The translations under genes and the position numbers were made by a program. Below are positions 1 through 42,200 of a DNA stretch of 43,128 nt, piece after piece; within the stretch, counting starts at the first letter, position 1, and each line of letters opens with the position of its first letter. Source of the stretch: Psammoneis japonica (lineage: Eukaryota). Below the pieces are notes generated by a model, which saw only the letters and a list, made by a program, of their open reading frames with translations, ran no database searches and had not been told where the DNA came from. Location: the NCBI GenBank assembly GCA_008632985.1, contig QPGO01000189.1, positions 62,001 through 105,128 of the forward strand, given 5' to 3'.

Positions 1-73
1 GAATAAACAAAAGAAATGAAAATTGTGTAGCGTATTGTTTTCTATTATATATTCTAGCGTGATGTATTATGAA

Positions 74-6038: not shown

Positions 6039-6071
<33 letters not shown>

Positions 6072-13078: not shown

Positions 13079-14017
13079 TCTTTGATGATGTTGGGTCAGT
13101 ATATTACTATTGCATCTAGTTGCGTGCATTTTTACTTTCAAAGGAATATCCTTCACAGTCCTTACTCTGCAGTAGTAGAGAAAATGTCAGCCATTCGTGT
13201 GTGGAGCTCTATGATGCGTCTTGATGCATGAAGGCTCGAAAGAATCAAATTGTACCACATAGGCTTTAGAGAGCGGAGCCTTTGGAATCGTGGGAAGGGA
13301 TACAGCAACAATAACCCATCACACAAGAGCGATGAAAGGAAGAGAACAACAAAGAAATGGACGGGAAATGGAGTCTGGAGCGCACAATGTGTTTTCCTGG
13401 AGTCATGAATGTTCCGTCTTGTCATTGGGGAGTTTCTTTCAGTTCAGCACAGTGCCGGCAGCAACGAGGAATAACAAAGACGTCGTAATGAACAGCGAGA
13501 AGCAGCATGTCCTGCTGGCATGCGATCGAGAGCAGAGAACATCGTCTTCGACAGCTGTCTTAATCAGACACACTGTCACGTGCCGGCAGGCAGCTACACT
13601 TTGTTTCCGAATTCCCTGCAGTACTTCACAAACTCAATTTTGTCGTAGATGAAGTACACCTCATGGAAATCAAGACATGCTAGCTCCTTTTGGACCTCTG
13701 CTTCTTCCCCAATGCCAAAGACACACAATGTTTCAACTCGAAAGCTGTCAAAAGGCAACTGGTCAAGGTCTGTGGCAAAGAACTCATCTCTGCAATCATC
13801 ACTGAACACTGTTGACTCTGTGATTTTAACAGTGTGTCTCGGGCAAGAGGGCCAAGAGCTTCAATGATGGACCAGACAGGGTCTCAGATGTGGCTCAACA
13901 AGGGTCCCTCATGAATCTTGGAGTGCAAGAAGGCTGATTGCCAAAGGGGACAAGGGTCAAGGAGGGCATGGTGCCAACCACAGAGGGGCAGGTGGAGTGG
14001 CAAACATCTTGCAGGAA

Positions 14018-14198
14018 TGGACAAACACTGCCATGACAGCCAAGAATTGAGTGACAGATGAGACTGAGAGCAGCATCAGCAGGATCCAGATTTTTGAGAG
14101 TTGTGTGCAATGATGGGTCCACTGATCTGGTGACAGTGGACTGATCACCAACAGCAAACAACTGCCCACATTTGTGACAGTGCATCGGCATTTGTTCA
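14018..14198 (-). repeat. 3' LTR (181 bp) of the Copia element
   Basis: Minus strand starts TGAACAAA and ends TTTGTCCA (imperfect terminal inverted repeat); preceded by purine tract AAGGGGAC; aligns with 17232-17420. Confidence 0.85.
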
Positions 14199-14206
14199 GT
14201 CCCCTT
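14199..14206 (-). other. Polypurine tract of the Copia element
   Basis: AAGGGGAC immediately 5' of the 3' LTR TG on the minus strand. Confidence 0.65.
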
Positions 14207-14342
14207 GAGCTGACACTGGCTCCACTTGAGTCAGATTGACAGAAAACTGCAACCTGTTGCTGCCCTGTTCCAGGGTGGTTTTGTTGTGAGGATGAAGCTG
14301 CACCCGTGCAACAAACTCATTTGGCTTGTCCTCTTTTGGGAC

Positions 14343-16149
14343 TCACCACAAGACATGAGTTGTGATTTCCTGGAGCTTTGGCCCATGCAACAACTCAGCC
14401 AGTTCACCTGCTAGATTTGTGCATCCATCCTCCCAAGCAATGAGCCCGATTCCTGCAGCTTGCACTTCATGGGTCCTGTGATGCACGACCACATCATTGT
14501 GCTTCTTCTTCAACACAGACTCCAGCCCAGTTGAGTTCTTGAAGACAGCTTCATTTTCACAAAAGACATTGGTGGCCCCATCCAGGAGAATTCCCAGCAT
14601 TCAAAGCTTGCAACACAAGCCTTTGATTGCTCTGCTCCACTGCAGTCTTCATTGCCATGAACCATGACCCAAAAAATGGACAACTCCATGGCATTCTGCC
14701 ATCTAGAGCAACACAAAATGGGCACTCACTGGATGAGTTACAGGGTCGTGGTGTGGGACCTGCAGATCACACAGCATCTCTGGTGTCATTTTGTTGACAA
14801 AGCAAGCAGTTGTCATGCTGTTCCCACATGTCTCTGGAACATTTGGTGGCAATGGTTCAGCCACACCAGGGCAATGTTCTTTCCAATGGCTTTTGGCAAA
14901 TTGACTCTTGTCAAAGATTGGCTCAGTGTTGTCAAACACTGATGGTGCATGCTTTGAATGAGCCTTTAAGTGCATGAAGACATGGAGCACCTCACCCAGG
15001 TGTCCAACTTGTGGTGCCACAAGGCAGGATGACACAAGAGAGATGGCAACAAAGATGTCAATCTGCCCAAGCTCTGCCACCCACCTGAGCACTCCAACAA
15101 GACACCTTGATGGCAATTCACCATTTTGGTGTTCAACTCCAGCAAACTGTCCAGTTCAGGCCTGCACCCTGAGCTCAAGGGTGTCAGCACCTTTGTCAGA
15201 AGGCATCTGTCAGTTTTTTTAAGCTCCAGCTCAACATCTGCTGATGCCCTTTTGATGTGCAAGTCAGAGAACATGGCGCAGCATGTCTTGTCATCCATGT
15301 CAGACAACTGACGCTTTCCAATTTGGGCTCCTGGATGCTTCTTCTCCAGTTTGCAGACACGATTGCTTCTGTCCTTCAATGTGCACCTGGAGCTCACAAA
15401 GTCCACATGACTTTCTGAGGGTCATGGGAGACACATGATAAATTGTCTGCATGCACAAGTGCATGTTCCCAGTGCTTGAAGCCATCCAGCTTCACTGCGG
15501 GTTGTTGCATCCAAGTGTCTGGATCAGCCTTGCATGACTCAAATCTCCTGTGCCATGAAAAGAGTTTCCACCACATCCTCCCCAATTGTGCACCTGACAA
15601 CTTGAGACCACACAAGGCTTGGACTGTGACAACTGGCCTCCCTTCACTCTGCTCACCAAGTTCTAGCCCAGCAGCAGCACAACGCTTTTCATCAGTGTGT
15701 GCATTCAGACAGGCGTTCTGCACATCTGCACTCAGGACCTCCAGGTTGCACAGAGCAGCAACAGCAAAAGTCATCATCCTCATGTGGTCACATGACACTG
15801 CATTGAAATGAGCAAATTCTTTGGGTGGATCAATTTGGTGGCCTCCAGCCATGAATCTTGCTTTGCATTGGAGAGCACTCTTGATGTCAAAGACCATGTG
15901 ACAATTGATGTGTTTGCACCCAACTGGTGCAGCGCGGTTGTCTTGGAACTCAAACACAGGCATGACATTGTGCACTCCCTTCTCATTTGCTTTGAACCAG
16001 AAATTGGTCCCTGTTCTGTTGTCTGTTTCCACAGCATCCTCAACAGACTTTGGGAGCTCAATTTCAAACTTGTGCATCTGTTGCCAATGATGTGACTTGA
16101 CCTCCTTCACAGGATCCTGGTCCTGCAATGCAGTGTGTCTTGGACCCAC
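14343..16149 (-). pseudogene. Decayed Copia reverse transcriptase and RNase H
   Basis: HKFEIELPKSVEDA, CHMVFDIK..KARFMAGGH, DVQNACLNA, ALCGLKLSGA, SCKADPDTW, EHALVHADN (YVDD equivalent at 15442-15453), GVLRWVAELGQIDI, VFCENEAVFKNST..LKKKH; several frameshifts and stops. Confidence 0.92.
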
Positions 16150-16381
16150 CAGTTAAATGCTGGTTCAGTGTCTCATGCAGTCTGTGGCTGACATCTCTGC
16201 AGCAACTGCTTCATGTTCCCTGATGAGGCAGACAATGTGGGCTCCCACCATGGCAATGGATGGTGGCACAGCTTGGTCTCATGTGACTCTTGGAAGGCAG
16301 GGCAATCACAGAGGTGCTTGAGCTCCACAGCACCCCAGGAGTCATCATTGGAATTCATTGATTTCAACTGCTCCAATTCTG

Positions 16382-16708
16382 TCAACCTCTCTGTCTGCTT
16401 GGTGATGATGTCACCAGCAAAAGCAGCATGTGCAGGAGCTTGGTTGCAAGCTTGCCTGCAATCTTCTCTGCCCATGCACACAGAGCCTTGAACTTCTGGT
16501 TGGCTGGGGATGGAAACTGCATCTGAGGGCTGGCAGCAGGATCCAGAGCCTTCATGACACATTTCAACATTTCATTGATTTTGGTCAGAGGAACCTGCTC
16601 CATGTCCTCAACAGCAGCAAAGCCTTGCAAGGCAATGATGCACTGCCTGGTCTGGTTGTTGTGTTCACAGCACGTGAGAGTGGCTGCAACGGCTGTGCCA
16701 GCAGCCAT
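16382..16708 (-). pseudogene. Decayed gag N-terminal fragment of the Copia element
   Basis: Position downstream of 5' LTR/PBS; IIALQGFAAVEDM..INEMLK..QKFKALCAW resembles diatom Copia gag starts (recalled, not searched). Confidence 0.5.
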
Positions 16709-17218
16709 GGGTGGTGTCTCAAAACATCATTTGCATTTCAACACATGAGCATCCACTTGTGTGAGTGGAGAAATTGTGAGAATTGTGCGGTGTCAGATCA
16801 CTTCAGCAAACCCTGCTGGCAAACCTGCAAGCATGCTGGGTCACTGTTTTGTGTTGCACAGCATTTGGTGCAACACACACAATGCAACATTTGACACAAA
16901 ACCAATGATCAAGTGACTGGCACATGTCCTCATGTCCAACATTCTTGGCATGTCAATGTGCTGTGCCTGCACAAATGTTTGCATGACTCAGCCAGCATGT
17001 CACACTCATGTGATCAAACATGTTGCACTCCAACAACATGTCCAACAGATCACTGCTTTGGCTCATTGCAGCATTTGGTTCATGTTCATGAATGCAAACA
17101 CATGCAAAAAGAATTCCGTGATTGCACAAGCAACCATGGAACCAACATGGCACTTGCTGCAAAAATTGACAAACAATGCCGTTGCACTGCTCACAAAGCA
17201 AAAACATCACAGTGCTGT

Positions 17219-17228
17219 GGCTCTGACA
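17219..17228 (-). other. Putative primer-binding site (initiator tRNA-Met type)
   Basis: TGTCAGAGCC three bases after the 5' LTR; one TAT-to-TGT change from the TATCAGAGCC core of the Copia PBS. Confidence 0.6.
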
Positions 17229-17231
17229 AAG

Positions 17232-17420
17232 TGGACAAATGCCACCATGACAACTGAGAATCAGGTGACAGACAAGTTCAAGAAGAGTTGAACAACATCA
17301 ACAGGTTCCAGAATTGTGAGAGTTCTGTGTGCTGCTGGGTCCACTGCATTGGCAACAGTGGACCAATTGCCAACAGCAAACAACTGCCTGTGTTCATGAC
17401 AGTGTGGCAGCATTTGTTCA
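17232..17420 (-). repeat. 5' LTR (189 bp) of the Copia element
   Basis: Same termini as 14018-14198 and colinear alignment over the whole length. Confidence 0.85.
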
Positions 17421-17507
17421 AGAAGATGAGAGGGCAAAGCTTCTGAGGAGCAGGAGGGTGAGTCAGGAGGAGGGGGGGCAATTGGGTGGATTGGCCATTT
17501 GTGTGTT

Positions 17508-17530
17508 AGAGAGAGAGAGAGAGAGAGAGA
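17508..17530. repeat. (AG)n microsatellite
   Basis: Seen directly. Confidence 0.85.
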
Positions 17531-18910
17531 AGATTTGCAAGAGGAGAGAGCAGGCAGGGGAGGGCCTGTTTTTGAAGGTTGGGATGGGTGAGAAGGTGAG
17601 GTGGCAGATTTTGCTTGTGATGACAGAGGCAGGCACACTTGTCAAGGCCATCAAAATCACAGTCTGCAACAGCAAAACAGTGGGTCACAACAAGAAGAGT
17701 TGTGCTGCTGGAGCAGAGAGAGAGGGAGCCAGGAGCCAGGAGCCAGCAGATGGTGCAAAGACACAGAGAGGAGCAAAGGTTGGACCAGGTGGAGAGGACA
17801 ACAGATCAATGGGGTGGCAGGAAAAATTTGCAAGGAATCTCCAGCCAGCTGCTGGCTGAAGAATTTTGCATGGAATTTGTGTTGGAAAAATCTGTCAATC
17901 AGTGCATTTGGGGGTTTCGATGAATGCAGGACAGACTAAAAAATTGTCATTTTCATGCTAAAAAATTGTGCCCAAACATGCTGACAAGCAGATTTTTCCT
18001 GCCAGCAACCAGCCAGAGATGCTCCCCAAATTGTCAATTCTTGCCCACTGAAGGAAGCTCTGTGCTCAGCCAGGTGAAGAGAGTGGGCAAAGGAGACAAG
18101 GAAAAGTGCTTGGACAGAAGAAGCAGAATGTCATGGCAGCTCCCTGGCACCACCAAGGGAAGCCAGGAGGTGAGCAGCAAGCTGGCTGGGCAGCAGCTGG
18201 AGCAAGAAGAGATGTGGTGGAAGGGTGTGTGAAAGCAAGTGCAGGGAATGGCAAATGATGACATCAGAAAAGGTTGAGGCCCAATGAAAGAGGTTGGGCT
18301 GTTCTTGGAGGAAAACTTGCAACAGACACATTGGCAGAGAGGATGCAAGCACCAACAAAACAACACATTGGCTGAAGAGGGCAATTGGGATCAGTTTGTC
18401 AGCTGGCAGGCAGGCTGTGATGTGGAAGAGGTCTTGAGTGAAGGAGTCAGCCTGGGCAGAGAGAGGAGGCAGAGTGGAGGTGAATTCAGAAGAGCTGACA
18501 GGCTGGCCAAGAAAATGGATGACAACAAGTCTTTGCTCTTGACAAGAAGGTCAACCAACAAGAAACAAAACTTTTGCACCTGTGGTTGCACTCTCTGCAG
18601 GCATCATGATTTTTCAAAAGTCATCCAAGGTGGGGTCACTGCAACTGCAATTCTGAATGTGGCAGCAGCATTGTCCGAAATTGCAGTTTGGGTTGACCGT
18701 TGATTTTTCCAGTGGCCATGGACCTGCAATGTTTTGCTTTGTGGCACAGCATCTTGTCCAGAATTGACCCATTTGGTTGGAAGAGCTTCACCAGCTCAAT
18801 TGCCCATTGCATGTTTTGCAGTGTTCCTGCTGCAGCATTTGTCCCTTTGTTGAGTTGGGCACCACCACACAACTCAGCCACCAATCCACTGTTTCCATGA
18901 CAATGGCTTG

Positions 18911-18928
18911 CCCCCCCCCCCCCCCCCC
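18911..18928. repeat. C18 homopolymer
   Basis: Seen directly. Confidence 0.85.
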
Positions 18929-20038
18929 ATTGCAACCCACTGTGTCCTTGTCTGACAACAATGAAAGACACTCTTTTCAAATTGAAACTCCACTTGCATC
19001 AATTTGTGCTCCAGAGCCCAGTTTACAATCACAAGCATCTCCTGCAATGACTGTGTCATCATTTGATTCCTGTCTCCTGTCATCATTCATGCTTCCTGTT
19101 GCCATGAATGCTGGCCAACTGGCTTGACCTTGTCATCACATCACAATTTGACAAATTTCAACATTGACCTGGGTTGCAGTGTGGGTCAATCTGCCCTTCA
19201 TTTGGCATCACTTGGAAGCTGCCAATTGACAACAAACACACCTCAAACACCTTTTGGAATGCCAAGTCATTTGGGGCCACATGTTTGTGATTTGATTTTT
19301 TCTGTGCTTGCACATTGCACTCTGTTTGATGTGCAGCAGATTTCTGCCAGTGAGCACCACCAAACTGTGCCCACTGTCTGTGCATCTCTGCCCCTTGTTG
19401 CTCTGTGAACACGCCAGTTTTGTCTCTTGCAGGAGATTGCAGAGGGTTGCTTGGATGCCTTCCTTGCCCAAGTGCCAGTGTCAAGTGGCTTGTCTGAGAG
19501 AAGGACAAGCATTCTGCATGCACCCAGACTGCATGAGTGACAGTTGCAACCAAGGCTTTGGTGACAAAATCTCATTTGACTTGAGACTTTGTGTGCAAAG
19601 GGCAGCATGGATGATTGGCAACACAACACATTGCAGCAGCTGTGTCATCAACAAGATTGGCAGTGAAGACCTCTCAACAACATTGCAATGAAAGCTTGCT
19701 CTTGACAACTTGTTGCAGCAGAAAAGCTTGACAAGTGGTGCGCACAGTCAACGAAGCTCAATTTTGCATTCTGACTCACATCCCAGCCAATCATCCCATG
19801 AAAGATCTGTTTTTGCTTGAACTTTAGATCAGGATGAAATGGAAGATGGCTTGCCTGCTTGATGCAGCTTCATGCTTCTGACAAAGAGAAACTTGTTTCA
19901 AAAATGCTGCTTCAAATCCTCTGACACTCCACCCCAGTGCATTGCTTTTTTAAGCTTCACCAACCTGCTGCCATTTGGCAATCAAACCTTTGAACAAGTC
20001 ACTCTGGAGTTTGGAAACCCAAGTCTGCTGTTGATCAA

Positions 20039-20805
20039 CCTTGCAGTGCTCCATCAACTGCAGTTCTTAAAGTGTCTCATGCACCTGGGGTGCACCAGAT
20101 TCCACCAGCATGCTCAGCTTTCAGCTGTTGGGTTGGTTGGCACTGCCATGTGGTTCTTCATCATGGAGTTGGAAAATTCAAGTCTGCTGCTGCCAAGGAC
20201 AAGGTGACATGGAGCCACAACCACACAAGAAAGTGCCACAAGATGAACCTTGCCATGCTCAACCACAGCTCTTAAAGTCTCACCTGGGGTGCATCAGACA
20301 CTGCCAATGTCCTCAGCTTTCAGTTCTTGTTGGATTGGCTGGCACCACCATGCAGTTCTTTTGCTGTGGAGTTGGGAAGTTTGAGTCCAATGGTGCAGGA
20401 CAAGGTGACATGGGGTCACAACCACACAAGACAGGCCTTGCAATGCTCAACCACAGTTCTTAAAGTCTCACCTGGGGACCTCCACACTGCCAGTGTCCTC
20501 AGCTTGCAGTTGTTGGATTCATTTTAGATTGTCTTCATGTTGGGTGCTGTGCATTGTGCCACACAAAAAAATGTGCACGTGTTGCTGTGGCAAAGAGTTG
20601 AGTCTGGCTGCTGTTGGAGACAAGATGACATGTGGCCCCATGACACCACAAAATCAACCTTGCAATGCTCGACCACATCTCCCAAAGTCCAACCTGGGGT
20701 CCACCAGACAGTGCCAGTGTCCTCAGCTGGCAGTTGTTTGGTTGGTTGGTGCCATCATCATGGAACCCTTGCACTCTGGAGTTGGGAAGTTCAAGTCTGC
20801 TGACA
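20039..20805. repeat. Diverged tandem repeat, four units of about 190-220 bp (starts about 20039, 20248, 20436, 20658; last unit partial)
   Basis: Recurring CCTTGC(A/C)(A/G)TGCTC..AAAGT..ACCTGGGG..CTCAGCT in all units, with GGAGTTGG and GACAAG(G/A)TGACATG in most. Confidence 0.85.
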
Positions 20806-23132
20806 CTCCATTTTTTGCCATTTTTTTGTTTCTTGGAACTCAGACAAGTTGACAAAAACAGCCAAGGACAAGAAACAAAGTGATGCAACATCACACACAG
20901 GTGACCAGAAACAACAGCATTCTGCAATGCTTGCCAAAGACATTGTTCCAAACTGACAACTTCTCTGTTGTCTTGTGCCAGGGATTGCTGTTGTCTCTTG
21001 CAATGCCCACAATGCCAATGCAGCCAAAAACATCAAGATGTTGGACAGACTGCAGAGACAATGGGGCTGACAATGGGGCAGTGGCTCAAAGAACAAAGGG
21101 AGCAAAGGCAGTGGAATGAGAGCATGGAATGTGAGAGCATGCATCAAATGACAAAAATGCCAGGGCAGAAAGCAAACATCATTGGAAACCAGAATTGCAG
21201 TGCACACCTGTTGATGACAAGAATGAACAAATCAAGAAATTGTCGGTGTGCTCCAGCCAATGAACAACAACAACCAATGAGATCAGCGTGTGCATGTGTG
21301 CACAGAGTCAAACCATGCTTCATTCATTGTTGTTCCCCACTTTGCCAGTTTGGCAAACAACCAACACACTCCAACATTTGTGAGTGTGGGATGGTGGTGC
21401 TGTCCACAACCAACTTGTCATTGCCAAGCATGCAACTGGTGTCATGGATTGGGGCTCAAAAAGGGCACTCTGTGGTGCACAGGTCAGTGATCTGAGTGTG
21501 TTGACTCATTGCCATTTGAAGGTTTAGAAGACTTCACAATCCAGGCAATGAGGTGCACCAAGGGACCAAATTCATGAATCCTTGCACTGGTGGCAGACAA
21601 GCAAACTGAAGTCTGAGAAAACATCATTTTTTGTGAGCAAATTTGCAAAAATTTTTGTGACAAATCAGTCAGATTGATTGCAACAAATCACATTGATTTG
21701 TGATGAGTCAGTGTGATTTGAAATGCACAAGTGTCTGTTTTTGTCAACAAATGTCAGGGATTGCAAACCAAGACCTTGTTGACCCAACCAGCATGGCAAA
21801 AGTCAACAAGTTTGCACCCACAAAATGTTCATGTTGATGGGTGCTTTCAAAAATGCAGTTTTTGCAATGGAGTGTTGCCATGGAATCTCATGCAAACAAC
21901 AAAACAATGAAAAAATTCTGCCAATGGGTTTTCATCTGCCAAGCCACTGTCAACTCCAGTTTGCATTGGCAGATCTTGGAACAGCTCACCATGTGGCCTC
22001 CTTGTTGCCTGAGTTGTCAAGTCCTTCCTCTGCTTGCTTTTTGCAGTTCACTGCAGTTGATTTCTGTGACCAGCTCCTTGCAGAACTTGCACCATGTTTG
22101 CTCCTCTCAGCAGCCATCCCTTGCCCCTCCCTGTCATCTTGTGTCATCTCTTGCCTGTGCCTTCCTCTGCTGTGCTTTTGAGTTGCTTGCTGTGAAGTGC
22201 TTGAGTCACATCTTGTGCACTTTTTCTTCTTTGAAACAACTTCCTTTCCATGAGCTCCTCATTGGCAATGCTTTCAAGCTCACATTTGTGACATCTGTCA
22301 GAGCTGAAAGTCACTCCTCTGTCTTCTGCTCATCTCAAACCCCTGTGTCATTGGAGACAGCACAATGCTGATGCAAGTTTTCCATCTTGTTAGCAGCAAC
22401 ACCCCACCAGTGACACTTGCAGCACATTTTTTCTTGCTGTGCTTGACAAGCAGTGGTTCACTGCCAGCCACTCCTGGTTCAACCCACCTTGTTTCATTTT
22501 CATCCAGAGGAATCCCACCACACCAGCCTCACAGCACACTGTGTTGGCAAAGTCCCTGAATGTGGCAGAAAACATGTGTGCAGCTGGCTGCATGATTTCA
22601 GTGCTGTGCATGTGCATCTGTCACATGTCAAGGGATCAAGATCCCTGCCTCTTCAAGTTGTTCATTGGCCAACAACAAGGAAACTGCCAGTGCAACCAAC
22701 ACATTGTCATGACAACACCACTTTGCCTTTTTTCAATTGTGTCAGCCCCTCCTGCATGCCCAGTTGAAGCATGACAGCAGCAGCCTGTTGAACAAATCTG
22801 AAGCAACACAATGCTCCTCTGGAGAACCAGCTCAACTGCAAAAGAATGCTCTCAAGGTGCAACTGAAACCTCCATGAACACTTTGATGATCAGTGGGCTT
22901 TAGAGAGTTGGTGGCCACACTTGTTGCTGCTGGGTTGTGCATTGTCCCAGCTTCTCTTTGTGTTGTTTGCATTGTCACTGGCTCTCTGCTGCTGTGCTTG
23001 CAGGCAACCAGAGCCATCAAACACATGTGTGGTGCAAGCTGCACTGACAACTGAGCTCAAATGCAGAAATTTTTAGCAGACCCACATGTTTTTGAACTTC
23101 AACACACTTGTCACATTTTCAGGCCATTTTCA

Positions 23133-23160
23133 CCCCCCCCCCCCCCCCCCCCCCCCCCCN
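23133..23160. repeat. C27 homopolymer ending in an N (probable contig join)
   Basis: Seen directly. Confidence 0.8.
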
Positions 23161-26100
23161 ATGATGACACAGCACACCATTTGGCTGTCTCAAGCATGTC
23201 TTCTGCTGCACCTTTGTGAAAGGTCTAGAAGCACACTGTCCGTGTCAGCATCTGTCCACAATTCTGGACAAAGCCTCTTTGTGCAGCATGTCTGTTTCCT
23301 CCCATTCCTTGCTTTGCATCAAACACAAATGTGATGCTCAGAAATGCCATTTCTTTGACATGGTCTCTCACCTTGATGACATCTCTGCCAATCTTGTTTT
23401 TGTTGTTGACTGCACCCACATGCCCAGCTTGGTCTGTGTCTCTGCCAAGCCAGCACAGCTCTCATTGTTTTTGTGTTGTGTGTTTGCAAACATGCGTTGT
23501 GATGCTGCTTTGCATCATTGCAAGCTGGCCTGCCCTTTGTGTGGTCTTTTGACCTGAAAAAAAGGTGTTTCCTGTGTTGTTGTGATGTTGTGCTGCCAAC
23601 TCATGAAAGAACTGATCCACCACACCAAAAAAAAACCAAAAACTAATTTTAAGTGCTGTTGCACCTTTGCCCAGCAACACCGGTGCCAGCTGACCCACAC
23701 TTCCAGCACACCCTGCAAGGGGTGGTGCAGCAGAAGATCGTGTGATCAGTCGGTCACCGCGCCACTTTGAAGCGACGCACCAGAGACAAGAGGTCACGGA
23801 GAAATTGCACAGGAATGAGATCATTGCTTTCTTTTGGAGAGGATTCAATGCACCCAAACTGCCACAGCAAAGGTCAATTGCATCAAGCAGATGATTCAAA
23901 GTCAATGCAAACTCTGGGAGAAAATCTTTGCTTCTGAGGGAGGGTCTTGTCTTCAACAAAGACTGACTGAATTTCAAAATTGCACGCACCAGAACAAAAG
24001 TGTGAAGTTCACTGCTCAGGACAGTGATCTTGGCAGGCCAGCAAGTAGAAAGGAGATGTTTGGGTCTTGCAGGGATGAAATGGGAAGCCTTGGTGATGTG
24101 ATGAGAAGGTTGTTGGAAGAAATGTCATTCTTGCGTGGAATTGACACTGAGTCTTGCACAGAAACAATGCCAATCCGTGCAGCAAATGGACGGTCATCAG
24201 GCAATGCCGATGGTTCATCCAAACAAACACTTGCAGCAGGCGCCACAACTGAGACAGTGCTTTCACCACATGAGGTGAAGAACTTGAGCAGCCAGCAGGA
24301 GTGAAAGAAATTGTTGGGGGCTTTTGGGCATGGAAGGAAGTTGATCGCATCGAAGATGCAATGATCGTTGGTGGACATTTCGGAAGCTTGTAGAATTTGC
24401 ACTGGATTCTGTGTAGAAGTTGTGCCAAATCCGCAAAAAATTGCCAAATTGGACAACATGCATGCAAGCCACAAGGCGTCAATGCCAGCCTTTTTCCACT
24501 GAAAATTGTTGCACATCATGGAGAGAAATGATGGTGCACCAATGGCAGAAGGGGCCAAAAGGTTTTGGGGGGACCCAGCAAAATGCCATCTGAAAAGGGC
24601 AACATCAGCACAAGAGCACGCGTAGAAACACACACAGGGGCTGCTGGTGGGTGCTCACACAGAAAAGCAGGGCCCCAAAGAACTGACAACACCACTTGTT
24701 GCAGTCGCTGCCAACAAACTGCACATTTTACCCAAGACAGACAAGCAACCCTCCATGTCCATGACCCTGGAATCTGCAAGACACATCTGAGTTAATCTGC
24801 ACTCCAGAAAGTGATGAATGAAGCAATCAATGCCAAAGAAGACATGATCTTCATCATGGTTGGGACCCACCACCTCCACCTCTGACAAGGACCCAAAATG
24901 CAATGCCAACACCTTTGACAAAGATGACAACAATTCCACCAATGAGGGCAAAAAGCCCTCCTCTGATGGTGCACGCCTGCAGGAACACATGAAACATTTG
25001 CTGAAACACTTGCCAAGCATGTGGCAGGTCCCAAGCTCTGCAAAAATGCACTCAACCATGTCACAGAGAAAATTCTGACCAACAAGACCTGCCACAATCC
25101 ACACCTTCTACCCCACCCACTGGATGACTGCACAGTGCCAAGGAGTGCTTTGAATGCAAACATGAAGGACCCAACATCCTTTTCAACACCCTCATTCCCC
25201 ACAGCACTGGACACATCATGCACTGTGAAGACAGCAGCGAGCAAGTGCATCATCCTCATGGATGATGCCCTCTGCACAAACACCATCAAGTGGTGTGCAA
25301 AATCATTCCTGCAACAATGTGTCACGTGCAACAAAATCTCACCTCTGGACTTGCCTTGGGCAACAACAAAGATGATGATTTGCCCCTCCACATGTTCATC
25401 CAGCTCATCCAGATGAAAGCTGCAATCTGCCAATGCCTGCAAGAAAATGATGTCTTCCCATCTGACTCCATGTTTCCAGATGTCATGGTGCACCAATGTT
25501 CTAGAGACAGGTGCACCACCCTGAAGATGACAATCTTTGATTTCCATCTCTTTCTATTTTCTTTCTTTGTGACCACCCGGGGACTTTTTTCTTCTAATCA
25601 GCAACTGGATTGCTCATCAGGGGAGGGTGACAGCCAACTGAGTCATGAGTTGTGTGTGCCAGCAACACACCCCAGTCATGTGTCCCAGTCACACACCCAG
25701 TGGATGGATGTCCAGACATCTGGATGGCAGAGGATCTCATCAGATTTCTCTCTGCTCACTTTCTTTCTGACTGGTGCCATTGTGTCATCACAGTCCCAGT
25801 GCACACTGGATTGCACCAGCAGACAGCAATCTGTGCCAGCAGCAACTCCATGATCTTTGTGCTGTGCTGCAATTTGTCAGAAGAAATGGCCTCCTCTTTG
25901 CCACCAGTGGAGTTTTCAGAATCACTGAAAGAAGGGTCTGGTGCCTCTTCCTCTGTGCTGCTGTTCTTGAACTGAGAAAGGGAGTCATCTTGATGGTGCA
26001 CAGGAGAGTTCTCCACTGCTGATCCCACAGCACATCCATTCCTCACCTGTGGGTCAATGAGCAAAAGCCCCTCTTCATTTGTTGATGCCAGTGTCTTTAG

Positions 26101-27689
26101 AAACACCTTCCATGTGGTCTGATGCTGTGCATCGTCTTCAGGCTGCAGCCATGAAAGCAAAATTTTCAGATGCATCTGTGCTGCAATGGAAAAGCACCTT
26201 GGGGGACACACAAATCTCATCCAATCAACATCAGACTTTGCCAAAGTGAGAAAAAGTTGACTGGGTGTGAAGCTCACACAGAAGTCTTGCAAAAAGGACA
26301 AAAAAAAACCCTGCAAAACAAGTCACTTTGCACAACAGACCAAGTGGATTTGTGATTGCCTTGCTCTGGGTGTAAAAAGTTCCCAAAACAGAAAGATCTG
26401 CTGCCAAATCAAGTGCAACTGTTGAGATTTGAGCAGGACAATGTGGGACAGTCAAGGCCATTGTTGCACTTGAGTCAAGATCTGAAAGACAAAACAATTT
26501 GGTTGTGGGGCAACAGCCATGTGCAGGCCAAACCAAAATGGGGGCAACAAATGAAAAGATCAACACAGCAAAAACAAGTGCACACATGCAGTTTAATCAC
26601 AGATTGGCTGATGCAATGAATCTAAGAGTGCACTGACTGGGCAAAAGGGCCAAATGATGGCCTGTGGCTCATGCACCCTTTCTTGCCTCTCTGATGTGGT
26701 GAAGGGTGGGGTGGTTTTGTGTGGAGGGGAGGAGAGAGAAAGTTCTTGTTCCAACGGGAAACACCACAGAAGGAAGGGGGGGTGTTGAGGGGAGGGTGTC
26801 AAGCTGTTTCAGAAAAGAGGCATGATTGGAGTCATCTTGAGGTGAGTGGCTGGCAGACACTGGCTGTGAGTTGGCAGAGGAAAAGTGAGGGTGGGGTGCT
26901 TGTCAGCAATTTGGGGTGTAAAGAGGCAGAGGAATCAGGCGCTCAAGTTTCATTTTCTGGTGGCAATGGCAGCATGGGTGTGGTGGGTTGTGCTGTTGGA
27001 AGAAGGAATCAGGGATGGGTTGGAGGTGGGAGGCTGCAGTGCTTGTGCACTGATGCAAGGCGATTGCAGAAGAGGTGAGAACATGGCTCGAAGGGGTGTG
27101 TTGGGGGTGTGAAAGTTGGAAGGAACAGAGCCCTCACAAGGGCAAGACAAAGAGTCAGTGCCCCCCAAAGGTCAGCAGAGGTGCTTGAGAGCTCCACTTT
27201 TGGATGACTGGGAGGAGGGAGTTGTGGGGTCATGGTTCAACGTGACAGCCTGGTGACACCCCAGCCGTTGGTGTGAGGAGGGCGGGCAGCACAGTGGAGA
27301 AGAGCCAAAGCGACAGTTTGCTGGCGGCCATCACGCTTGGAGAACACAAGGTCCATGTCCTCATCAGAAGGTGCAGGAGTGGTGGGACCAAGAGCAGTGT
27401 GAGAGGAGGTGTAGGATGCATCAGCTTCAGTGTTGGTTTTCGGAGTGAACAAGCCCATCTGCGCGGGGAACAGTTAGCGTTTTCCCCGCGCGGCCGAGCG
27501 CCGAGCGAGCGAATCAGAAAAAGAGGCAATTCGAAAAAAAAGTGAAGGATGGCACTCCATGATCGAAGTTTGTTCACTTGAAGCACCAAGCAACCAGTCT
27601 TACTGAGATTAACCAGTCAATCGCTCATCTTATCGACTTAGGGTCTTGGGGTGAAGGCTTCTTACGACGCTTTTGGAGCTCTATTTAGG

Positions 27690-28355: not shown

Positions 28356-29102
28356 GAGTTGTTGATTCATCTATGAAAGATACTGTGTCACAATTCGGTA
28401 TGTTTCAAGAGCCGTTGAATCCAGTTTCCGCGGTCTTGCTTATCATATTATAGTCTCCGCGGTCTTGCCTATCACATAAACTCGATTCGTTTTCTCTCAA
28501 CATGCAACCTTGCTCTTTTCCTGCTGTTTCATAGCATCGCGCATCGAGCTCAAAGGTACCTTTTCAGAAAGGTGTCTTGCTTCCTCAGAAGTGCTTTCAA
28601 GCAACGCCCCGAAACGCGCGCCAAATGGGAATTGGTATGGGAGTCGAGAGCACACAACACAATTTTTGCTCTTCAACCGTGACAGCCTCGAGTTGACAGA
28701 GTGTCACTAATGTAGCATTTTCTGTTGCATCCGTTGCCCAATCTGTGGCATCAAAAAAGAGAAAAGGTGCCGCTCCGATGGAACGTTGGGTTCGGTCGGG
28801 GTTCGAATTGCCGTTATGAATTGGGCCACGTAGAGTCCTACGTAGGATTGTACCGGACGGATGGAAGCTTCCCTCTCGGACACGGCTACGTGGAAATGTA
28901 CTGAAGCTTGCGTAGAAATTCACAAATTTGAAACTCACGGAACAAAACGGTGCCGATACCGTCGTCCACACCAACGGACTTCTTGTTCCAGCGATCCCAT
29001 GCCGGAACGTTGCCATCACCACCACATACACCACTTACCGTTTCGGAGCATACTTATTGTCCCTTCCCTTGTATCTACTATTCGCTCTCTCTCTCTCTTG
29101 CC

Positions 29103-36887: not shown

Positions 36888-36908
36888 GCACGAGAGACAT
36901 GTAATTTA

Positions 36909-38950
36909 TGTTCAAAATGGATTGTCGTTTTGGAGTTTTGTGTGTCACCTGGGACTGGAACACGTCGCTCGCACGCATTTTCCCGCCACCGGAGCACCCG
37001 GAATCGCCATTGTCGCGAGTCGTCGTCATTTTTGACCATTGTGACCTCAAACCCGGATTGAGTCGTTTCGAACTGTCCGAGTCTCTGCCAAGTCAAGACT
37101 GGCCCCTCAAATCATTCTGCGACGATGCTGATCGCTGCTGTTTGATTGTTGAGTTTCCGGCAAGTCTACGAATGATCCGATGTCAAGAGCTTCCATTTGA
37201 CATTTCGTTTTGAATTCCACGCACATTTGCCACCAGATCCTGCGCTGCAAGCCATCTCTTTGATGTGTGTCAACCATGGCAAGCAACACATCAGGTTCTG
37301 CACTGGTCCCGTCTGCAGCGGGAACCACAACTGCCACTGCTGCTGCTGCTGCTGCCACCCCTGTCACTGCGAAACGCGGCAAAATTCACCCTGAGTGTGG
37401 GCATTTCATGGGCGGATCGCCACCAAATGACGACTGCAAGCTCAAGCTCACTTGGTGCTGCCATTCCACCAACCAGTCTCATGACAAGAAGATCCTTCCT
37501 TGCATTGAGCGCACTCTTTGTGAAGTGAGGGATGGATCGGACGTCATCAAGTTTGACAGAAATGTTGAGCTCGCCAAGGACGGCCTCAACGAACTTGATC
37601 AAGCTCATTTTGTTCAAGCTCTTTGCATCATCATCAAGGAACACAGGCCAGAGATCTTCTTTGTTGTGAAGCTTGATGGCAAGGTTGTGTCACTCTTTGA
37701 CCATCGCCACTCGTTCTCCGTTCAAGATGTCATGACGGAACACAAGGAATGAGTCGATCTTCCTCTCCCAATTGGTTGTCAAGTCTTGCATGTCCTGTTG
37801 ATTTCGAGCAAAGATTGAGGTCCAGCACGGTCATGACAATCTGTTCAAGCACTGTCCAGGCCAAGTCTGCCTCATGATGGCCTTGGATGCTTGCAATGCG
37901 TCCACCATCCATGATGTTGAACAAGCCGCCGAGGATCTCAGTGCCTCATCACTCTTGTCTCACCCTGGGTGAGGACGTTTCCAAGTTTGCCACCAAAGCA
38001 CTCTGTCTCACCAAGCTTCTCCAAGCCGGACATGCACCGCCAATTGATCTCGGCTCTGATGTCCTGAAGAAAGGTCTCAAGACGTTGTGCAAGGCTTTCA
38101 ATCACAAGATCTTCACCATGTTGGACAAGGTGTCACATGTGGAACAGAAGTGTTGTCTCAGTGATCCCAAGGCACCTGCCAAGGACTCCGCCTGTGATGC
38201 TCTCAGACCCACTGCGTGCATCACACATCTCCAACAGCAGCATCACTTTTATGTCACTGAGATGAAGATTGGCCAGGGGGGCTCTCTGCAATGCTGCCCC
38301 AGAGCGACAATGCTTCCAAGACCCCTGGCAATGGGGGGGCTGCAATGCCTGTGGAGCAAAGGACCACTGGGCTGACAATCCCAAGTGTCCTGAGCATGCG
38401 GAATGACAGAAGCACAGGAACGAAAAGCACAAGGAGCGATGCAAGAACAATCGCAAGGACAACCCTGCATTGCCTCCTGCCACAACACTGCCTCCTGCAT
38501 CCTCTGTTGCAGCTGACACTGTCCCTGCTGAGAAGCAACCTGAGCTCAAAAGAAGTTGCTCACCAACGAGCCCCATTGTCACACTCGCCTGGTGGATCTG
38601 TCCAAGCCTGTTGTGAACAAGTGTGGTTTGACCACCCATTTTTGTGGAAAGTGCACGTGCAAGCACACCGGCATTCAAGGGATGCACACAAATCACAAGG
38701 AGTCAGATCATGTTCACAAGCCACCTGAACAAGAGCCACCTGCAGCCAATCTTGCCTCCATTGATGACCCGGATGTGGGCACCCCACCTGGGCCACCCAT
38801 CCAAACTGCTCCTGGTGGTCACGAGTCAACAACCGAGTCTGATTCACGGATGACGCTTCCGGTCATGGATCTCTTCTTCCGGAAGAAATGTCCGTTGAGT
38901 CTTCTAGCGACAGCAATCGGAGTGACACACACGACCGTCAGGTCATGATG
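36909..38950 (+). mobile_element. Decayed Copia 5' portion: putative LTR/leader (36909 to about 37200) and broken gag (37276 to about 38860)
   Basis: TpA depletion begins at TGTTCAAAATGG (36909); fragments ELDQAHFV..DGKVVSLFDHRHSF, GEDVSKFATKAL..FNHKIF and HFCGKC..GMHTNH align in order with the gag at 39284. LTR end not established. Confidence 0.7.
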
Positions 38951-39283
38951 TCATCTCCAATCCCTTGTGAGATCTTCTCACAATTCGCATCTTTGGCGCA
39001 TCTCATTGTCCCAAAACTGCTTCTTGTCATCCTCTGTTGCATTGCACAACCTCAAGAGAGTCCTGAACTCTCCATCCTACACAGTGCATTGTTGCATCCC
39101 AAATGGTTGCGACCCCAATCCACGCACCGGTGTCAACTCGTGATGGAGTTGCTGCCACTCGTTCGTCTCGTTACAGACGACATCCTGTCCAACGGCGATC
39201 TTCCACATCGCAATCCAACGGCGATCATCCATGTCGCAATCCCTGCCCACTGATCGATCCTCCACATCGAATCATCCACAACC

Positions 39284-42200
39284 ATGTCTATGGATCCAGA
39301 TGCCGTCAAGATGTTTGCTGAGGCCTTCGCCAAGATGCAAACCTCGACCAACCCTCCTGCGATCCCCACGCCGCTTCGTGGCGGCATCCACCACTCTCAT
39401 GGAGTGCATCTGGGTGGTTCGGCTCTGAACAACAAGTGCGAGCAGACCGACACCCGCACCCACCGTTTTGCCTCGCAACGTCGCCATCCGAAAGCTGTCG
39501 ACTCTATCGAGCGATCTCTCAGAGATCAACTCGCTTCGGCAACCACATCCAAGTTCAATGGCCAGATTGAGTCATCCAACGGTTCCAGCACTGAACTGGA
39601 CAAAGACCACTTCGTCAAGACCATTCAGGACTTAATCGAGTCGCACGGACAAGAAACTTTCTACCATCTCAAGAAAGTCGACGGCAAGGTCGTGCACCTT
39701 TTTGATCATCTTCACGCCTTCACTGTCAAAGACCTTGAGAAGGAACATGAGACCCGTGTGGTGGCTGCAGGTGACGAAGGCTACGATCAGCATGAAATCG
39801 ATGACATCGGCTTGTCACAACTCATCGTCAAGTCGCGCATCACCGAAACCTTCCGTGAAAAGATTGAAACCAAGTTTAATCACTTGAAGAACTACAAGGA
39901 TCTACCAGGGTCTGTCTTGTTTATGATGGCTCTGGACACCTGCAACGCCAGTGCTCTGGTTGACGTCAAGGCCGCCAAGGAAAAGTTGAACGACTTAACT
40001 CTGGACAACTGCCCTGGCGAGGACTGCACCGAGCTTGCAACCAAAGCTCTGCGCCTGCTCAAGATCATGCAGACGGACCATGCGTTGCCAGTTGAAACTG
40101 GGTCTGCTGTTTTATCTAAGGTGTCAAAGACATCCTCCGAGTTTTTCAATCGTCAAGTTTTTGCCAAGCTCGACTCCGTCAAGCGCTTGGAGCGCAAATG
40201 TCGCTTGCGTGACCCGGCAGAAGTCCCCAAGGATGCCGACTGTGCGGATCTTGGACCTGTTGGCCTCATTGGCTGGATCACCAAGACCCATGGCGAACTC
40301 ATTGGCGATGAAGATTGGCCTGCCTCAGCAGCCAAGCTCCCGGAATCCAACCTCGCCAAGGACAACTCGGAAAAGCATTGCTGCGGCTGTGGCAAGGTTG
40401 GGTGCACCAAACGCACGTGTCCTGCCTGCAAGGAGCAATGCAAGAAGGACAAAAAGGGCACGGCGGACAAGTCCAAGGATGACCCTCCGGATGTCCGGAA
40501 GACTGACCCTTCCAAGAAACCACCCAAGCCGGCCTGGCGTTTCGTTCACAAAGGTGCCACTGTCACTGACGAGCAAGGCACGACCTGGCACTGGTGCGAC
40601 AAGTGTGTGAACAAGGAAACAGGCAAGAAGGGCATGTGTCAAGGCCACTCCTCCGCTCAACACACGGGGAAACCGTCTGTCAAAACCGAAACCACCGCTG
40701 CGGCAAATTTATCTGCTGTGTCGGACCCCTCTTCGGGCATTCCTTTTGGCCCTCCCGAGCAGACGACGTCTCCGCCTACAGACGAACCCTCCGACCCTAA
40801 CGAGCTGGTTTATTGTGGCATGTGGTGTGCACCTGTGGACGACTCTTTGAGTTCGACTCCAGTGACTACGACCATCACGTTCACTCCTGCTCCATCGGCC
40901 GAGAGGGAGACTGCCGTGGCCAAACCCGCTCCCATCTTGGTTGAAACGGTTGACCCCGAAGACGCTGACGATTGCTCCGAGTGCTCCGACGCTCACTCCT
41001 CTTTTGACTCCCTACCGTCAGCTATCGAGCCATTTCCGGCCTATGCTGTGCATGAGATTCAAAATCCGGACGTGTTTTATGACACGATCGCAACTCACGT
41101 GGAAGGTCTGTCCGACGACGTGTCAGACGATCTCGTTTCCGGGGCAAGCATCCCACCTTTCGAAGACAGCTACGAGCACTTACCTCCAAGCACCTAGTGT
41201 CGCGGTTTCGAATTTTACGATCCCGAACCCCAAGATGTTGATTGTGGCGTCGAGGAGGCAACGCCGAGCTCTCATCTTGAGCTCTTCTGGAACTTCTTGA
41301 AGCTCCGAGTTTTCTGGCTGTTTGCCATGTTCTGGGAAATGGCACTGCACATTTGCTGTGCGCCGATTCCTGTCTTACCTCGTCGCACACGCCGTAAGGC
41401 ATTCATCCCAACCATTCACGGTTTCCCCTCTACCTGGATGGTGCTGACTGGAGCTGTCATGGTCTGGGCGTCTGTTTTCAATGGTCAGCTTCCCACATGT
41501 CCATTCTCCAATGTCCCCTCTCGCTTCTCCAAAGCCAGCTCTCAGGTCCACTCGATCATTGAAGAACTGGACGACAAGACAGTGTTAGATCCGGGCAGTT
41601 TGGTGGAACACAACAAGATCAAGGCGCGACAAGTGCTTGCCAAATTTGTGGAGCGCGATCCAGACCATCATCTGAGCAAGAAATTCACGCAGCTCTGGGA
41701 GAACGACGCATGCTCTTCCCCAGGCCGCTGCATCCCTCCAGCTCTAGAAGACCCTGAGTCCCACTTCGACACCTGTGATTCAGAGGAAGCCCTCGGCCCG
41801 CTCCCGACCGAGCCGAGCCACTACTTTGATGCGGTTGAGGAGCTCTCTCCGGACTATTTTCGTTTCGACGAGCTGTCCACCAAGTTTGGTTTCGTGGACA
41901 CCACTCCATGGCAAGACCCTGTGAAGCTTCTCCAGGCAGCTACTGACGGAACCGAAGCCCATCCTGCTCATACCTCCACGCAGGTGTTGACAGGCCAACG
42001 TTCTTTAGCACAACTCGCCGCCGACCCGCAAGCTTTGCTGAGCCTGGCACATGAGCGCCACACCGTCACATGCGATGCTGGCGCATCCTTGGCCATTGCT
42101 TACGATGAAAACGACTTTGTCGGACCTCTGACGATCCCTGATGGCCCATTGAAGCTTGGGGGTCTAGCAAATGGCTTAACCATCGCCGGCATCGGACCCG

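Follow-up and report, generated by a model that had tools for sequence, protein, structure and literature searches.

TpA-directed transition scars in transposable element DNA of the diatom Psammoneis japonica

A cluster of dead transposable elements (TEs) in the genome of the diatom Psammoneis japonica has lost nearly all of its TpA dinucleotides by transitions to TpG and CpA. The changes are specific to TpA, fall on both strands and arose after integration. The loss of TpA is distinct from CpG decay and further advanced, and the core of the earlier reading is upheld. The window analysed here is the whole stretch of 43,128 nucleotides taken from contig QPGO01000189.1 (assembly GCA_008632985.1, positions 62,001 to 105,128). 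The scar is real and represents a further case of a very recently described process of DNA-level mutation against foreign DNA, which as far as the available literature goes had been reported only from an unrelated alga, in a 2026 preprint.

The TpA-poor tracts and their contents

The main tract (13690..27460) is a TE graveyard between two host genes. It contains 42 TpA dinucleotides versus 921 expected from base composition (observed/expected, o/e, 0.05; ~95% gone), which is the very number that the earlier note had estimated by eye for about 13.7 kb. CpG is likewise scarce (71 versus 801, o/e 0.09), and CpA (1637/884, 1.85) and TpG (1560/835, 1.87) are in excess. TA and CG are the only depleted dinucleotides, CA and TG the only enriched ones, and the GC content of the tract (0.482) equals that of the flanks. 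In 1-kb windows from 14001 to 26501 the TpA o/e is 0.00-0.10, versus 0.4-0.8 in genes and other intergenic DNA (1-13000 and 27501-36500), and the left flank has a TpA o/e of 0.57 and a CpG o/e of 0.94. TpA is thus at normal levels in the flanks, in line with the earlier note, and within the window intergenic DNA outside TEs does not share the loss. At the left border, regular TpA and CpG cease together near 13650-13690; at the right border, CpG is back near 27240 and TpA near 27412-27600. TpA depletion exceeds CpG depletion in all four tracts of the window, and in this one window the tracts match Copia and repeat remnants and the neighbouring host DNA is normal. The contigs of the one public sequencing run that contains the stretch match it with 0-2 mismatched letters in each listed piece and with a word depth (57-74) typical of single-copy DNA, but this run may be the assembly's own data, so its support is not independent.

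In the main tract lie a truncated Copia element that retains both of its LTRs, a tandem array, a segment of high-copy repeat and further debris. The Copia element lies on the minus strand, with its 3ˊ LTR remnant at 14014..14199 and its 5ˊ LTR remnant at 17228..17421. Its degenerate, frameshifted RT-RNase H region occupies 14346..16166 (minus strand) and most of gag-PR-INT is missing; tblastn with full-length relatives placed only residues ~755-1365 there. Directly adjoining the inner end of the 5ˊ LTR remnant is the PBS-like word TGTCAGAGC (17220..17228, minus strand), which was probably once TATCAGAGC, the form known from Copia elements. This is the altered PBS word quoted earlier. It occurs exactly twice in the window, where chance would give 0.74 occurrences, and one of the two adjoins the LTR.

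The tandem array consists of four ~205-bp units (20033..20860). In the high-copy repeat segment (23240..24880), TpA is erased (o/e 0.06-0.09), CpG is partly lost (o/e 0.20-0.36), and the summed contig depth is 1316-3469 compared to ~60 for single-copy DNA. The earlier description of the phenomenon as repeat-targeted and RIP-like is so far not supported, in that DNA at single-copy depth (24881-25427, depth 60) is as depleted as the repeats. This segment, another at single-copy depth (22693-23239) and the high-copy segment are equally TpA-poor; old copies may just have diverged beyond 85%.

Two additional TpA-poor tracts (36908-39288 and 39289-~41500) lie outside the region covered by the earlier note. 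The first of these (36908..39288, plus strand), recognised by its composition and Tyr columns, holds a degenerate, frameshifted gag-like copy (37372-38822) and has a TpA o/e of 0.02-0.07 and a CpG o/e of 0.42-0.75. The second includes a still-open gag-like Copia ORF of 637 amino acids (39284..41197, plus strand), characterised by its Tyr and Arg columns, whose element reaches at least position 42322. Here TpA o/e is 0.15-0.33 and CpG o/e is 0.79-0.94 (39289-~41500). In this open element, which is GC-rich, the erasure of TpA is still at an early stage.

Direction, specificity and sequence context

The LTR pair is 72% identical in the full alphabet and 91% identical when purines and pyrimidines are collapsed. 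Across its 189 aligned columns there are 40 transitions, 29 of them inside TG/CA-discordant dinucleotides (14 swaps), and 12 transversions. Swaps between TG and CA thus make up most of the difference between the two LTRs of one element, which shows that the process worked on DNA already integrated. Among the units of the tandem array (20033-20860), TG and CA are mixed in eight columns, and in one column T-TA-A is kept in three units with CA in the fourth. The discordance in both structures bears out the previous claim of a DNA-level process rather than RNA editing. ADAR-like editing of transcripts was also rejected, because T>C and A>G are equally common on the coding strand and the LTRs differ.

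The direction of change can be read from conserved tyrosines. The codons given in the earlier note are present on the minus strand, with HADN encoded by CAT GCA GAC AAT at 15453 and below, and likewise NACL, ALCGLK and KHWEH. In the RT-RNase H remnant, the 13 columns that have Tyr in 70% or more of the 26 full-length relatives carry seven His (CAY), five Cys (TGY), one Trp and no Tyr. Leave-one-out controls changed from Tyr to Cys or His in only 8/329 cases (Fisher p = 3.6e-16). Arginine is kept in 3/14 columns, by AGR codons only, and residues other than Tyr and Arg are kept in 106/162. The gag-like copies were scored against seven outgroups. The copy at 37372-38822 has six Cys, two His and no Tyr in 11 conserved Tyr columns and keeps 1/11 Arg, and the 637-aa ORF has four His, four Cys and two Tyr in 13 columns and keeps 7/12 Arg, all of them CGY codons. 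Where both copies carry Cys or His, they disagree on which in three of seven columns. Pooled over the three TE remnants, Tyr survives in 2 of the 37 conserved columns, and 28 carry His (CAY) or Cys (TGY). Since the outgroup proteins retain Tyr where this DNA encodes His or Cys, the proposed direction from TpA to TpG and CpA is borne out, and intact relatives do not already have Cys or His at these positions.

The pooled outcomes (13 His and 15 Cys) agree with the claim that both strands are hit, and a runs test on TG and CA (z = 0.48) gives no strand runs. A strict one-strand rule (TAY>TGY only) failed a codon test, with a purine before only 7 of 13 His events. The outcome asymmetry in the k-mer balance (2.3:1) overlaps the range of flank blocks (0.80-1.49 versus 1.12-1.79). 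All 13 ancestral TpA sites have changed (six A>G, seven T>C), in contrast with A>G at 6/50 non-TpA adenines and T>C at 2/15 thymines without a following A. In addition, all three first-position adenines preceded by T became G. A>G and T>C changes are therefore far more frequent at TpA than elsewhere, as the earlier reading had required.

Survival of TpA depends on the neighbouring bases. The context Y-TA-R accounts for 29 of the 42 surviving TpA sites, compared to 17% in the flanks (p = 1.4e-13) and 18.5% among the TpA of Copia loci (p = 1e-12). The surviving fraction is 0 for RTAY, 0.03 for YTAY, 0.05 for RTAR and 0.22-0.31 for YTAR, and CpG survival is flat across context classes (0.08-0.14). 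Sites of the Y-TA-R type that persist in the tract include TTAG and CTAG.

Relation to CpG decay and to public relatives

Deamination of methyl-CpG is among the fastest spontaneous changes, and 5mC deamination explains the CpG>TpG/CpA half of the scar. However, it cannot remove TpA, and it would lower GC content by ~5 points, whereas GC here equals that of the flanks. Against the flank baseline, the mass balance of the main tract gives CA +612 and TG +574 versus CG −715 and TA −484; against the Copia-loci baseline, the values are CA +638 and TG +565 versus CG −637 and TA −623. The balance also closes by context class (RTAY+RCGY −301/+314; YTAR+YCGR −229/+216; mixed contexts −655/+661). The CA+TG excess (1186-1203) is larger than the CpG loss (637-715), with the remainder matching TpA loss, and CpG decay as the sole cause is therefore rejected. 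The earlier argument that 5mC deamination fails to explain TpA loss is upheld, because the balance needs losses of both TA and CG, and because CpG-intact DNA also loses TpA. That TpA loss runs ahead follows from the 637-aa ORF, which is without most of its Tyr codons yet keeps CGY arginines. For the open element itself, the class-level balance does not close with the baseline used (R-TA −77 with no matching gains), and part of its low TpA may thus be native. Diatom LTR elements are described as CpG-methylated (PMC2806351, PMC9998398).

The best 80 related Copia loci, found on metagenome contigs and as best-scoring matches biased to intact copies, have a TpA o/e of 0.46-0.97 (median 0.74), and none of them includes a 1-kb window with TpA o/e <0.15. 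Because these relatives have normal TpA, the depleted state is derived. When 105 public relatives were scored, only three of them carried this scar. One of these proteins, P0018, retains none of 11 conserved Tyr, nine of which are now Cys or His, and keeps Arg in 7/8 columns and other residues in 83/99.

Proposed process, rival explanations and known systems

We propose that the dead-TE cluster was altered in place, as chromosomal DNA, by two dinucleotide-specific transition processes. The first would be ordinary CpG>TpG/CpA decay, which 5mC deamination should bring about wherever diatom TEs are methylated. The second, separate and faster, would convert TpA to TpG or CpA (A:T>G:C at a self-complementary step), striking either strand with equal probability up to near-saturation, fastest at R-TA-Y and slowest at Y-TA-R. 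It would be limited to TE or foreign DNA and would end at host-gene borders. Because such a process cannot make stop codons, long 'ghost' ORFs would be kept in hypermutated elements. A dedicated TpA-directed process acting on integrated DNA is, in our judgement, probable.

By analogy, this process may be an active, targeted, enzyme-driven defence of the kind reported for the chlorarachniophyte Bigelowiella natans, in which integrated NCLDV and virophage DNA undergoes TpA-only A:T>G:C hypermutation (Mettrop et al., bioRxiv, April 2026, 10.64898/2026.01.13.699255). According to the available text of this preprint, two integrated viral regions of MA lines gained 231 mutations, of which 230 were A>G or T>C, all GC-biased mutations of these regions fell at TpA, the rate was ~6e-7 per site per generation, and TpA-poor CDS were enriched in RT and DDE domains; the authors propose an ADAT2-like candidate. 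As described there, the two cases share A>G and T>C change confined to TpA, giving TpG or CpA by strand, a restriction to foreign, non-host DNA with normal neighbours, and low TpA with high CpA and TpG in the long term. They differ in that B. natans is a rhizarian alga and P. japonica a stramenopile, and in that the reported targets are integrated viruses rather than LTR retrotransposons and repeats. The preprint reports a rate measured in MA lines, whereas the diatom tract displays the end state alone, and it gives a mild depletion for the NCLDV region (rho TpA 0.45) compared to 0.05 over 13.7 kb here. The diatom signature is overlaid on CpG decay and prefers R-TA-Y; the text of the preprint does not discuss CpG, and its main text holds no flanking-base preference. 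The earlier suggestion of an undescribed phenomenon needs correction, in that the same TpA-only signature is reported in the preprint. For diatoms, our literature search found no report of TpA hypermutation, and the available text of the preprint does not mention them.

The most likely chemistry would be conversion of adenine to hypoxanthine in a 5ˊ-T-A context by a candidate deaminase-fold enzyme, and we place direct adenine deamination tentatively, a little short of evenly balanced. A preference for a 5ˊ U is typical of adenosine deaminases of the TadA/ADAT/ADAR lineage, and A>I change with a 5ˊ U/T preference would yield TpA>TpG. To our knowledge, the natural substrates of these deaminases are RNA. 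Amphioxus ADAT2 is reported to edit DNA (PMC10354150).

A TpA-directed modification of bases in situ is an unlikely alternative. Either the thymine of TpA would be oxidised (5hmU/5fU, TET/JBP-type) and mispair with G, or its adenine would be N6-methylated and then deaminated. In the DNA of dinoflagellates, 5hmU is found preferentially at TpA and TpC. A signature of T>C and A>G changes at one self-complementary step, on both strands, cannot tell these routes apart, and the symmetric hierarchy from R-TA-Y to Y-TA-R would suit a modifying enzyme that reads its site in double-stranded DNA. A bacterial 6mA deaminase, YerA, is described (PMC12133300). However, the authors of the B. natans preprint prefer an ADAT2-like deaminase, from sequence and predicted structure only.

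Slow, context-dependent spontaneous change or repair bias in heterochromatin, with no dedicated system, would suit the age of the main tract as judged from its LTR transversions. We consider it very improbable, because TpA loss outpaces CpG decay in each of the tracts, TpA persists in other intergenic DNA (o/e 0.5-0.8), and the 637-aa ORF and P0018 have TpA erased with the rest intact; the B. natans rate is also reported as episodic and 1000-fold over background. Adenine deamination of RNA or cDNA in the retrotransposition cycle, with copies mutated on arrival, is very improbable. The identified elements are indeed retrotransposons, and these two 'clean' copies would fit one burst, but the TG/CA swaps between the LTRs of one element, the discordant tandem units and strand-symmetric outcomes without runs all argue against it. 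Moreover, erasure is just as complete in parts of the tract that are not Copia or that lie at single-copy depth, and what is reported to mutate in cultured B. natans is the DNA of integrated DNA viruses. Native family composition or an assembly or sequencing artefact is largely refuted and barely credible: the GC-rich open element may owe part of its TpA deficit to native composition and the supporting run may be the assembly's own, but the outgroups retain Tyr at positions that encode Cys or His in the window, the two gag copies differ from each other there, TpA is normal in related loci, only TE DNA is affected and its borders are sharp, other public records carry the same scar, and an artefact would not give one LTR TG and its partner CA.

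Returning to the deamination reading, it is possible, though doubtful, that diatoms and chlorarachniophytes share a dedicated genome-defence enzyme, perhaps with much of the SAR clade, that would read the short and nearly palindromic step R-TA-Y in the chromosomal double-stranded DNA of silenced invaders and convert A to hypoxanthine on either strand, both before cytosine methylation decay and independently of it. If true, this would be a naturally occurring immune system based on a DNA adenine deaminase, an A:T-directed mirror image of RIP and APOBEC.

Fungal RIP is comparable to the diatom process in that it, too, hypermutates DNA by transitions biased to certain dinucleotides, inactivating TEs where they lie and marking their base composition. 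It depends on duplicated DNA and on a sexual phase. RIP changes C:G to T:A (mostly CpA>TpA), thereby making TpA, lowering GC and creating stop codons, whereas the diatom tract loses TpA and its non-CpG changes are A:T>G:C; RIP is rejected on this type of change. Diatoms carry RID-related DNMT4 genes, and nothing in the account of them ties DNMT4 to TpA (PMC9998398). The flanking context of the scar also differs from that of ADAR and fungal mRNA editing, which favour a 3ˊ G, whereas TTAG and CTAG survive here.

Extent and content of the depleted tracts

The main tract (13690–27460) contains exactly 42 TpA dinucleotides where 921 are expected by base composition (observed/expected ratio, o/e, of 0.05), which bears out the count of about 42 made by eye in the earlier note. 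CpG is depleted as well, with 71 occurrences versus 801 expected (o/e 0.09). CpA and TpG are in excess (o/e 1.85 and 1.87, respectively), and the remaining twelve dinucleotides have o/e values of approximately 0.8–1.2. In the neighbouring genes and other intergenic DNA of the window, the o/e values are 0.4–0.8 for TpA and approximately 0.9–1.2 for CpG. The usual density of both dinucleotides ends jointly at approximately 13650–13690 and returns at approximately 27240–27600, and the GC content of the tract equals that of its flanks. A second TpA-poor tract is located at 36908–39288 (TpA o/e 0.02–0.07, CpG o/e 0.42–0.75), and a third extends from 39289 to approximately 41500 (TpA o/e 0.15–0.33, CpG o/e 0.79–0.94). 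In all four tracts, TpA depletion exceeds CpG depletion.

Structurally, the main tract includes a truncated Copia element on the minus strand, which is represented by an upstream LTR remnant (17228–17421), a second LTR remnant (14014–14199) and an RT-RNase H region (16166–14346) split over three frames. Most of gag-PR-INT is absent. A PBS-like sequence, TGTCAGAGC, immediately adjoins the upstream LTR at its inner edge, and a search for the PBS 12-mer allowing up to two mismatches is uninformative, with 7 matches versus 7.6 expected. A Pfam search of 19 ORFs from the main tract at E ≤ 0.01 returned only a weak match to an HA domain, and at E ≤ 10 the RT ORF matched RVT_2 with E = 0.017 at best. 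The tract also carries a four-unit tandem array of ~205-bp repeats (20033–20860) and a high-copy segment (23240–24880) whose summed contig depth reaches 3469, compared to ~60 for single-copy sequence. Beyond the array and this segment, the Pfam search of tract ORFs assigned no identity to the region from 17.4 to 27.4 kb. Three other stretches (13690–13940, 22693–23239 and 24881–25427) have single-copy contig depth (~60–74) and TpA and CpG levels as low as those of the high-copy parts. These are either very old debris or the product of a process that spreads over a domain regardless of copy number.

Further downstream, a frameshifted gag-like remnant (37372–38822) is directly followed by an intact-looking 637-aa gag-like ORF (39284–41197, plus strand). 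The Copia element carrying this open ORF runs on to a run of N characters at 42323. Because the assembly is scaffolded, element structures are uncertain across this 417-base run (42323–42739), which lies within the young element, and across a lone N at 23160 in the main tract. The flanking genes include one for ferredoxin-sulfite reductase (30058–31683, minus strand), whose product is 84–88% identical to proteins assigned to the diatoms Seminavis, Nitzschia, Chaetoceros, Cyclotella and Thalassiosira, none of them matching at 100%. An additional ORF (2694–3785, minus strand) has a long N-terminal extension followed by a C-terminal bacterial HU-type DNA-binding domain (Pfam Bac_DNA_binding, E = 6e-16), and presumably encodes a plastid-targeted HU-like protein.

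Direction, specificity and timing of the changes

When protein sequences were searched exhaustively with the degenerate RT ORF as the query, 2530 relatives were obtained. The RT pieces of the window were aligned to a profile built from 26 of full length, and a column was counted if at least 70% of these sequences carry Tyr. None of the 13 conserved Tyr columns of the RT-RNase H region retains this residue; seven have His (CAY), five have Cys (TGY) and one has Trp. The motifs NACL, ALCGLK, KHWEH and HADN, from which the earlier note had read the direction of change, are all present. Among the relatives, replacement of Tyr by Cys or His occurs in 8 of 329 cases in leave-one-out controls (p = 3.6e-16 versus the window). 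Other conserved columns, with Tyr and Arg left out, are retained in 106 of 162 cases. Arg persists in three of 14 columns, always as AGR codons, and the remainder read CAR, TGY, CAT or TGA, which is the scar expected from CpG loss.

The two gag-like copies, when compared with seven outgroup proteins from other assemblies, exhibit the same pattern. The frameshifted copy retains Tyr in none of 11 conserved columns (six Cys, two His), and the open ORF retains it in two of 13 (four His, four Cys). Of the seven columns with Cys or His in both copies, three have Cys in one copy and His in the other, and such mismatches cannot result from shared ancestry. Among the best 80 related Copia loci from metagenome contigs, TpA o/e ranges from 0.46 to 0.97 and no 1-kb window falls below 0.15, indicating that a low TpA content is not native to the lineage. 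Since both the patterns used in the scan and its ranking are biased towards intact copies, these loci are uninformative on how frequent the scar is elsewhere.

When the ancestral base is inferred from the conserved residue, all 13 ancestral TpA dinucleotides have changed (six A>G, seven T>C), compared to six of 50 A>G changes at adenines without a preceding T and two of 15 T>C changes at thymines without a following A. Changes at TpA therefore far exceed other transitions of the same kind. The k-mer balance within the tract also closes. Relative to the flanks, gains of CA (+612) and TG (+574) accompany losses of CG (−715) and TA (−484), and with the 80 Copia loci as baseline the values are +638, +565, −637 and −623, respectively. 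The balance likewise closes for each class of flanking purines (R) and pyrimidines (Y), with −301 lost and +314 gained for RTAY plus RCGY, −229 and +216 for YTAR plus YCGR, and −655 and +661 for mixed contexts.

The LTRs of an element are identical at integration, and differences between them thus represent independent hits on each chromosomal copy, on either strand. The Copia LTR pair is 72% identical, rising to 91% after purines and pyrimidines are collapsed. Its 189-column core has 40 transitions and 12 transversions, and 29 of these transitions belong to dinucleotides where TG in one LTR is paired with CA in its partner, corresponding to 14 swaps. The tandem units contain eight columns mixing TG and CA, and one column has T-TA-A in three units and CA in the fourth. 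The outcomes at conserved Tyr codons are strand-symmetric (15 Cys, 13 His), and TG and CA alternate along the main tract without forming runs (z = 0.48). This symmetry and absence of runs argue against editing of sense transcripts, editing confined to cDNA, and long processive tracts on one strand. Together with the TG/CA swaps and the specificity for TpA, they uphold the proposal of the earlier note that A:T to G:C change is directed to TpA at the DNA level and on both strands.

Contigs from the single public sequencing run containing this stretch match it at single-copy word depth with 0–2 letters different per listed piece, although the assembly may have been made from these very data. No RNA data set was listed as containing the stretch. 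There are 294 differing places between the window and these contigs, and the 40 listed are of mixed contexts and yield no spectrum. The window reads TA at 14968 and 15664, where the run contigs have TG and CA, respectively, and TG at 14951, where one run contig has TA. These three differences could be allelic or strain polymorphisms produced by the same process, which would hint at recent or ongoing activity.

Separation from CpG decay and flanking-base context

CpG loss as the sole cause of the pattern covers little over half of the CA and TG excess, and would have lowered GC content by approximately 5 points, yet the GC content of the main tract equals that of the flanks. In the open ORF, 11 of 13 conserved Tyr residues are gone, yet seven of 12 conserved Arg residues are retained, all with CGY codons. 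Coverage of the Tyr columns was sufficient for scoring in 105 of the 150 public relatives listed, and three of these, all RT fragments from public assemblies, carry the Tyr to Cys/His scar at different stages. An RT fragment from a Logan assembly (P0018) has lost Tyr at 11 of 11 conserved columns, nine of them to Cys or His, and retains Arg in seven of eight columns, with 83 of 99 other conserved positions also intact. A second relative (P0025) has the TpA and CpG scars together, and a third (P0039) is half converted. The lead of TpA loss over CpG loss in all tracts, in the open ORF and in P0018 indicates that TpA erasure is separate from, and faster than, CpG decay, in agreement with the distinction from 5mC deamination drawn in the earlier note.

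Most of the TpA dinucleotides that survive in the main tract (29 of 42) are in the Y-TA-R context (TTAA 11, TTAG 8, CTAA 5 and CTAG 5), a class that makes up 17% of TpA in the flanks (p ~1e-13) and 18.5% in the Copia loci (p ~1e-12). Expressed as a fraction of the baseline, survival is 0 for R-TA-Y, 0.02–0.06 for mixed contexts and 0.22–0.31 for Y-TA-R, whereas it is flat across the four CpG classes (0.08–0.14). This symmetric hierarchy is the only context effect retained as a finding. By k-mer balance, YTGY/RCAR exceeds RTGR/YCAY by 2.3:1 in mixed contexts, with block-to-block variation that overlaps the flanks. A strict one-strand rule, in which TAY changes only to TGY, is not supported at the codon level, where a purine precedes His in just seven of 13 cases. 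In the open element (39289–42322), 36 of the 38 surviving TpA dinucleotides are preceded by a pyrimidine and two by a purine, and 25 are YTAY versus one of the reverse-complement class RTAR. This asymmetry may stem from the native composition of the element or from a genuine dependence on strand, and the class balance of this element does not close under the baseline used.

Parallels, mechanism and consequences

The earlier note knew of no description of such a process in diatoms. A literature search likewise found no diatom account of TpA hypermutation, and a term search of the classic diatom TE paper gave no mention of dinucleotides or deamination (PMC2806351). However, a 2026 preprint by Mettrop et al. 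followed mutation accumulation in lines of the chlorarachniophyte Bigelowiella natans and located 231 of the 302 nuclear mutations in two viral regions integrated in the genome (bioRxiv 10.64898/2026.01.13.699255). Of these 231, 230 are A>G or T>C, all GC-biased ones are on TpA, and the rate is approximately 6e-7 per site per generation, in some lines only. In the B. natans genome, windows poor in TpA and rich in CA and TG form clusters with an excess of RT and DDE domains, and the authors suggest a DNA adenine deaminase similar to ADAT2. Diatoms, stramenopiles and CpG are unmentioned in the preprint, and its main text gives no flanking-base preference (10.64898/2026.01.13.699255). The diatom tract therefore joins a recently described TpA-only hypermutation and is not unprecedented. 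It differs in representing a second lineage with LTR retrotransposons as targets and near-saturation, and it adds post-integration evidence and a context hierarchy. Fungal RIP is similar in logic only, as its chemistry is the opposite and creates TpA. Diatoms do have RID-related DNMT4 genes of unknown function (PMC9998398), with nothing to tie them to TpA.

Any mechanism must account for action after integration, on both strands, with a flanking-base hierarchy and independently of CpG methylation decay. The most likely candidate is an enzyme that would deaminate adenine in the T-A context within silenced invader DNA. The main rival to direct adenine deamination is a route through modification of thymine or adenine. 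An enzyme responsible for adenine deamination would in effect be a naturally occurring A-to-G editor of DNA, and it would be experimentally reachable because diatoms include transformable model species. If the signature is genome-wide, TpA-directed A:T>G:C hypermutation of invading DNA would extend to a second lineage of algae, one that is ecologically dominant, and what was a one-species observation would look like a widespread defence. The diatom tract represents the end state of this process, with 95% of targets erased, and dating of hypermutated elements by LTR divergence will be badly inflated.

Changes of TpA to TpG or CpA eliminate TAA and TAG and never convert a sense codon to a stop. 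Stop creation is impossible since TGA derives only from TAA. These two properties explain the crowd of ORFs in the main tract, where 69 ORFs of 90 aa or more overlap 13–28 kb, and the survival of the 637-aa frame in a Copia element that is very probably dead. Gene callers will annotate the long 'ghost' ORFs of such elements as genes.
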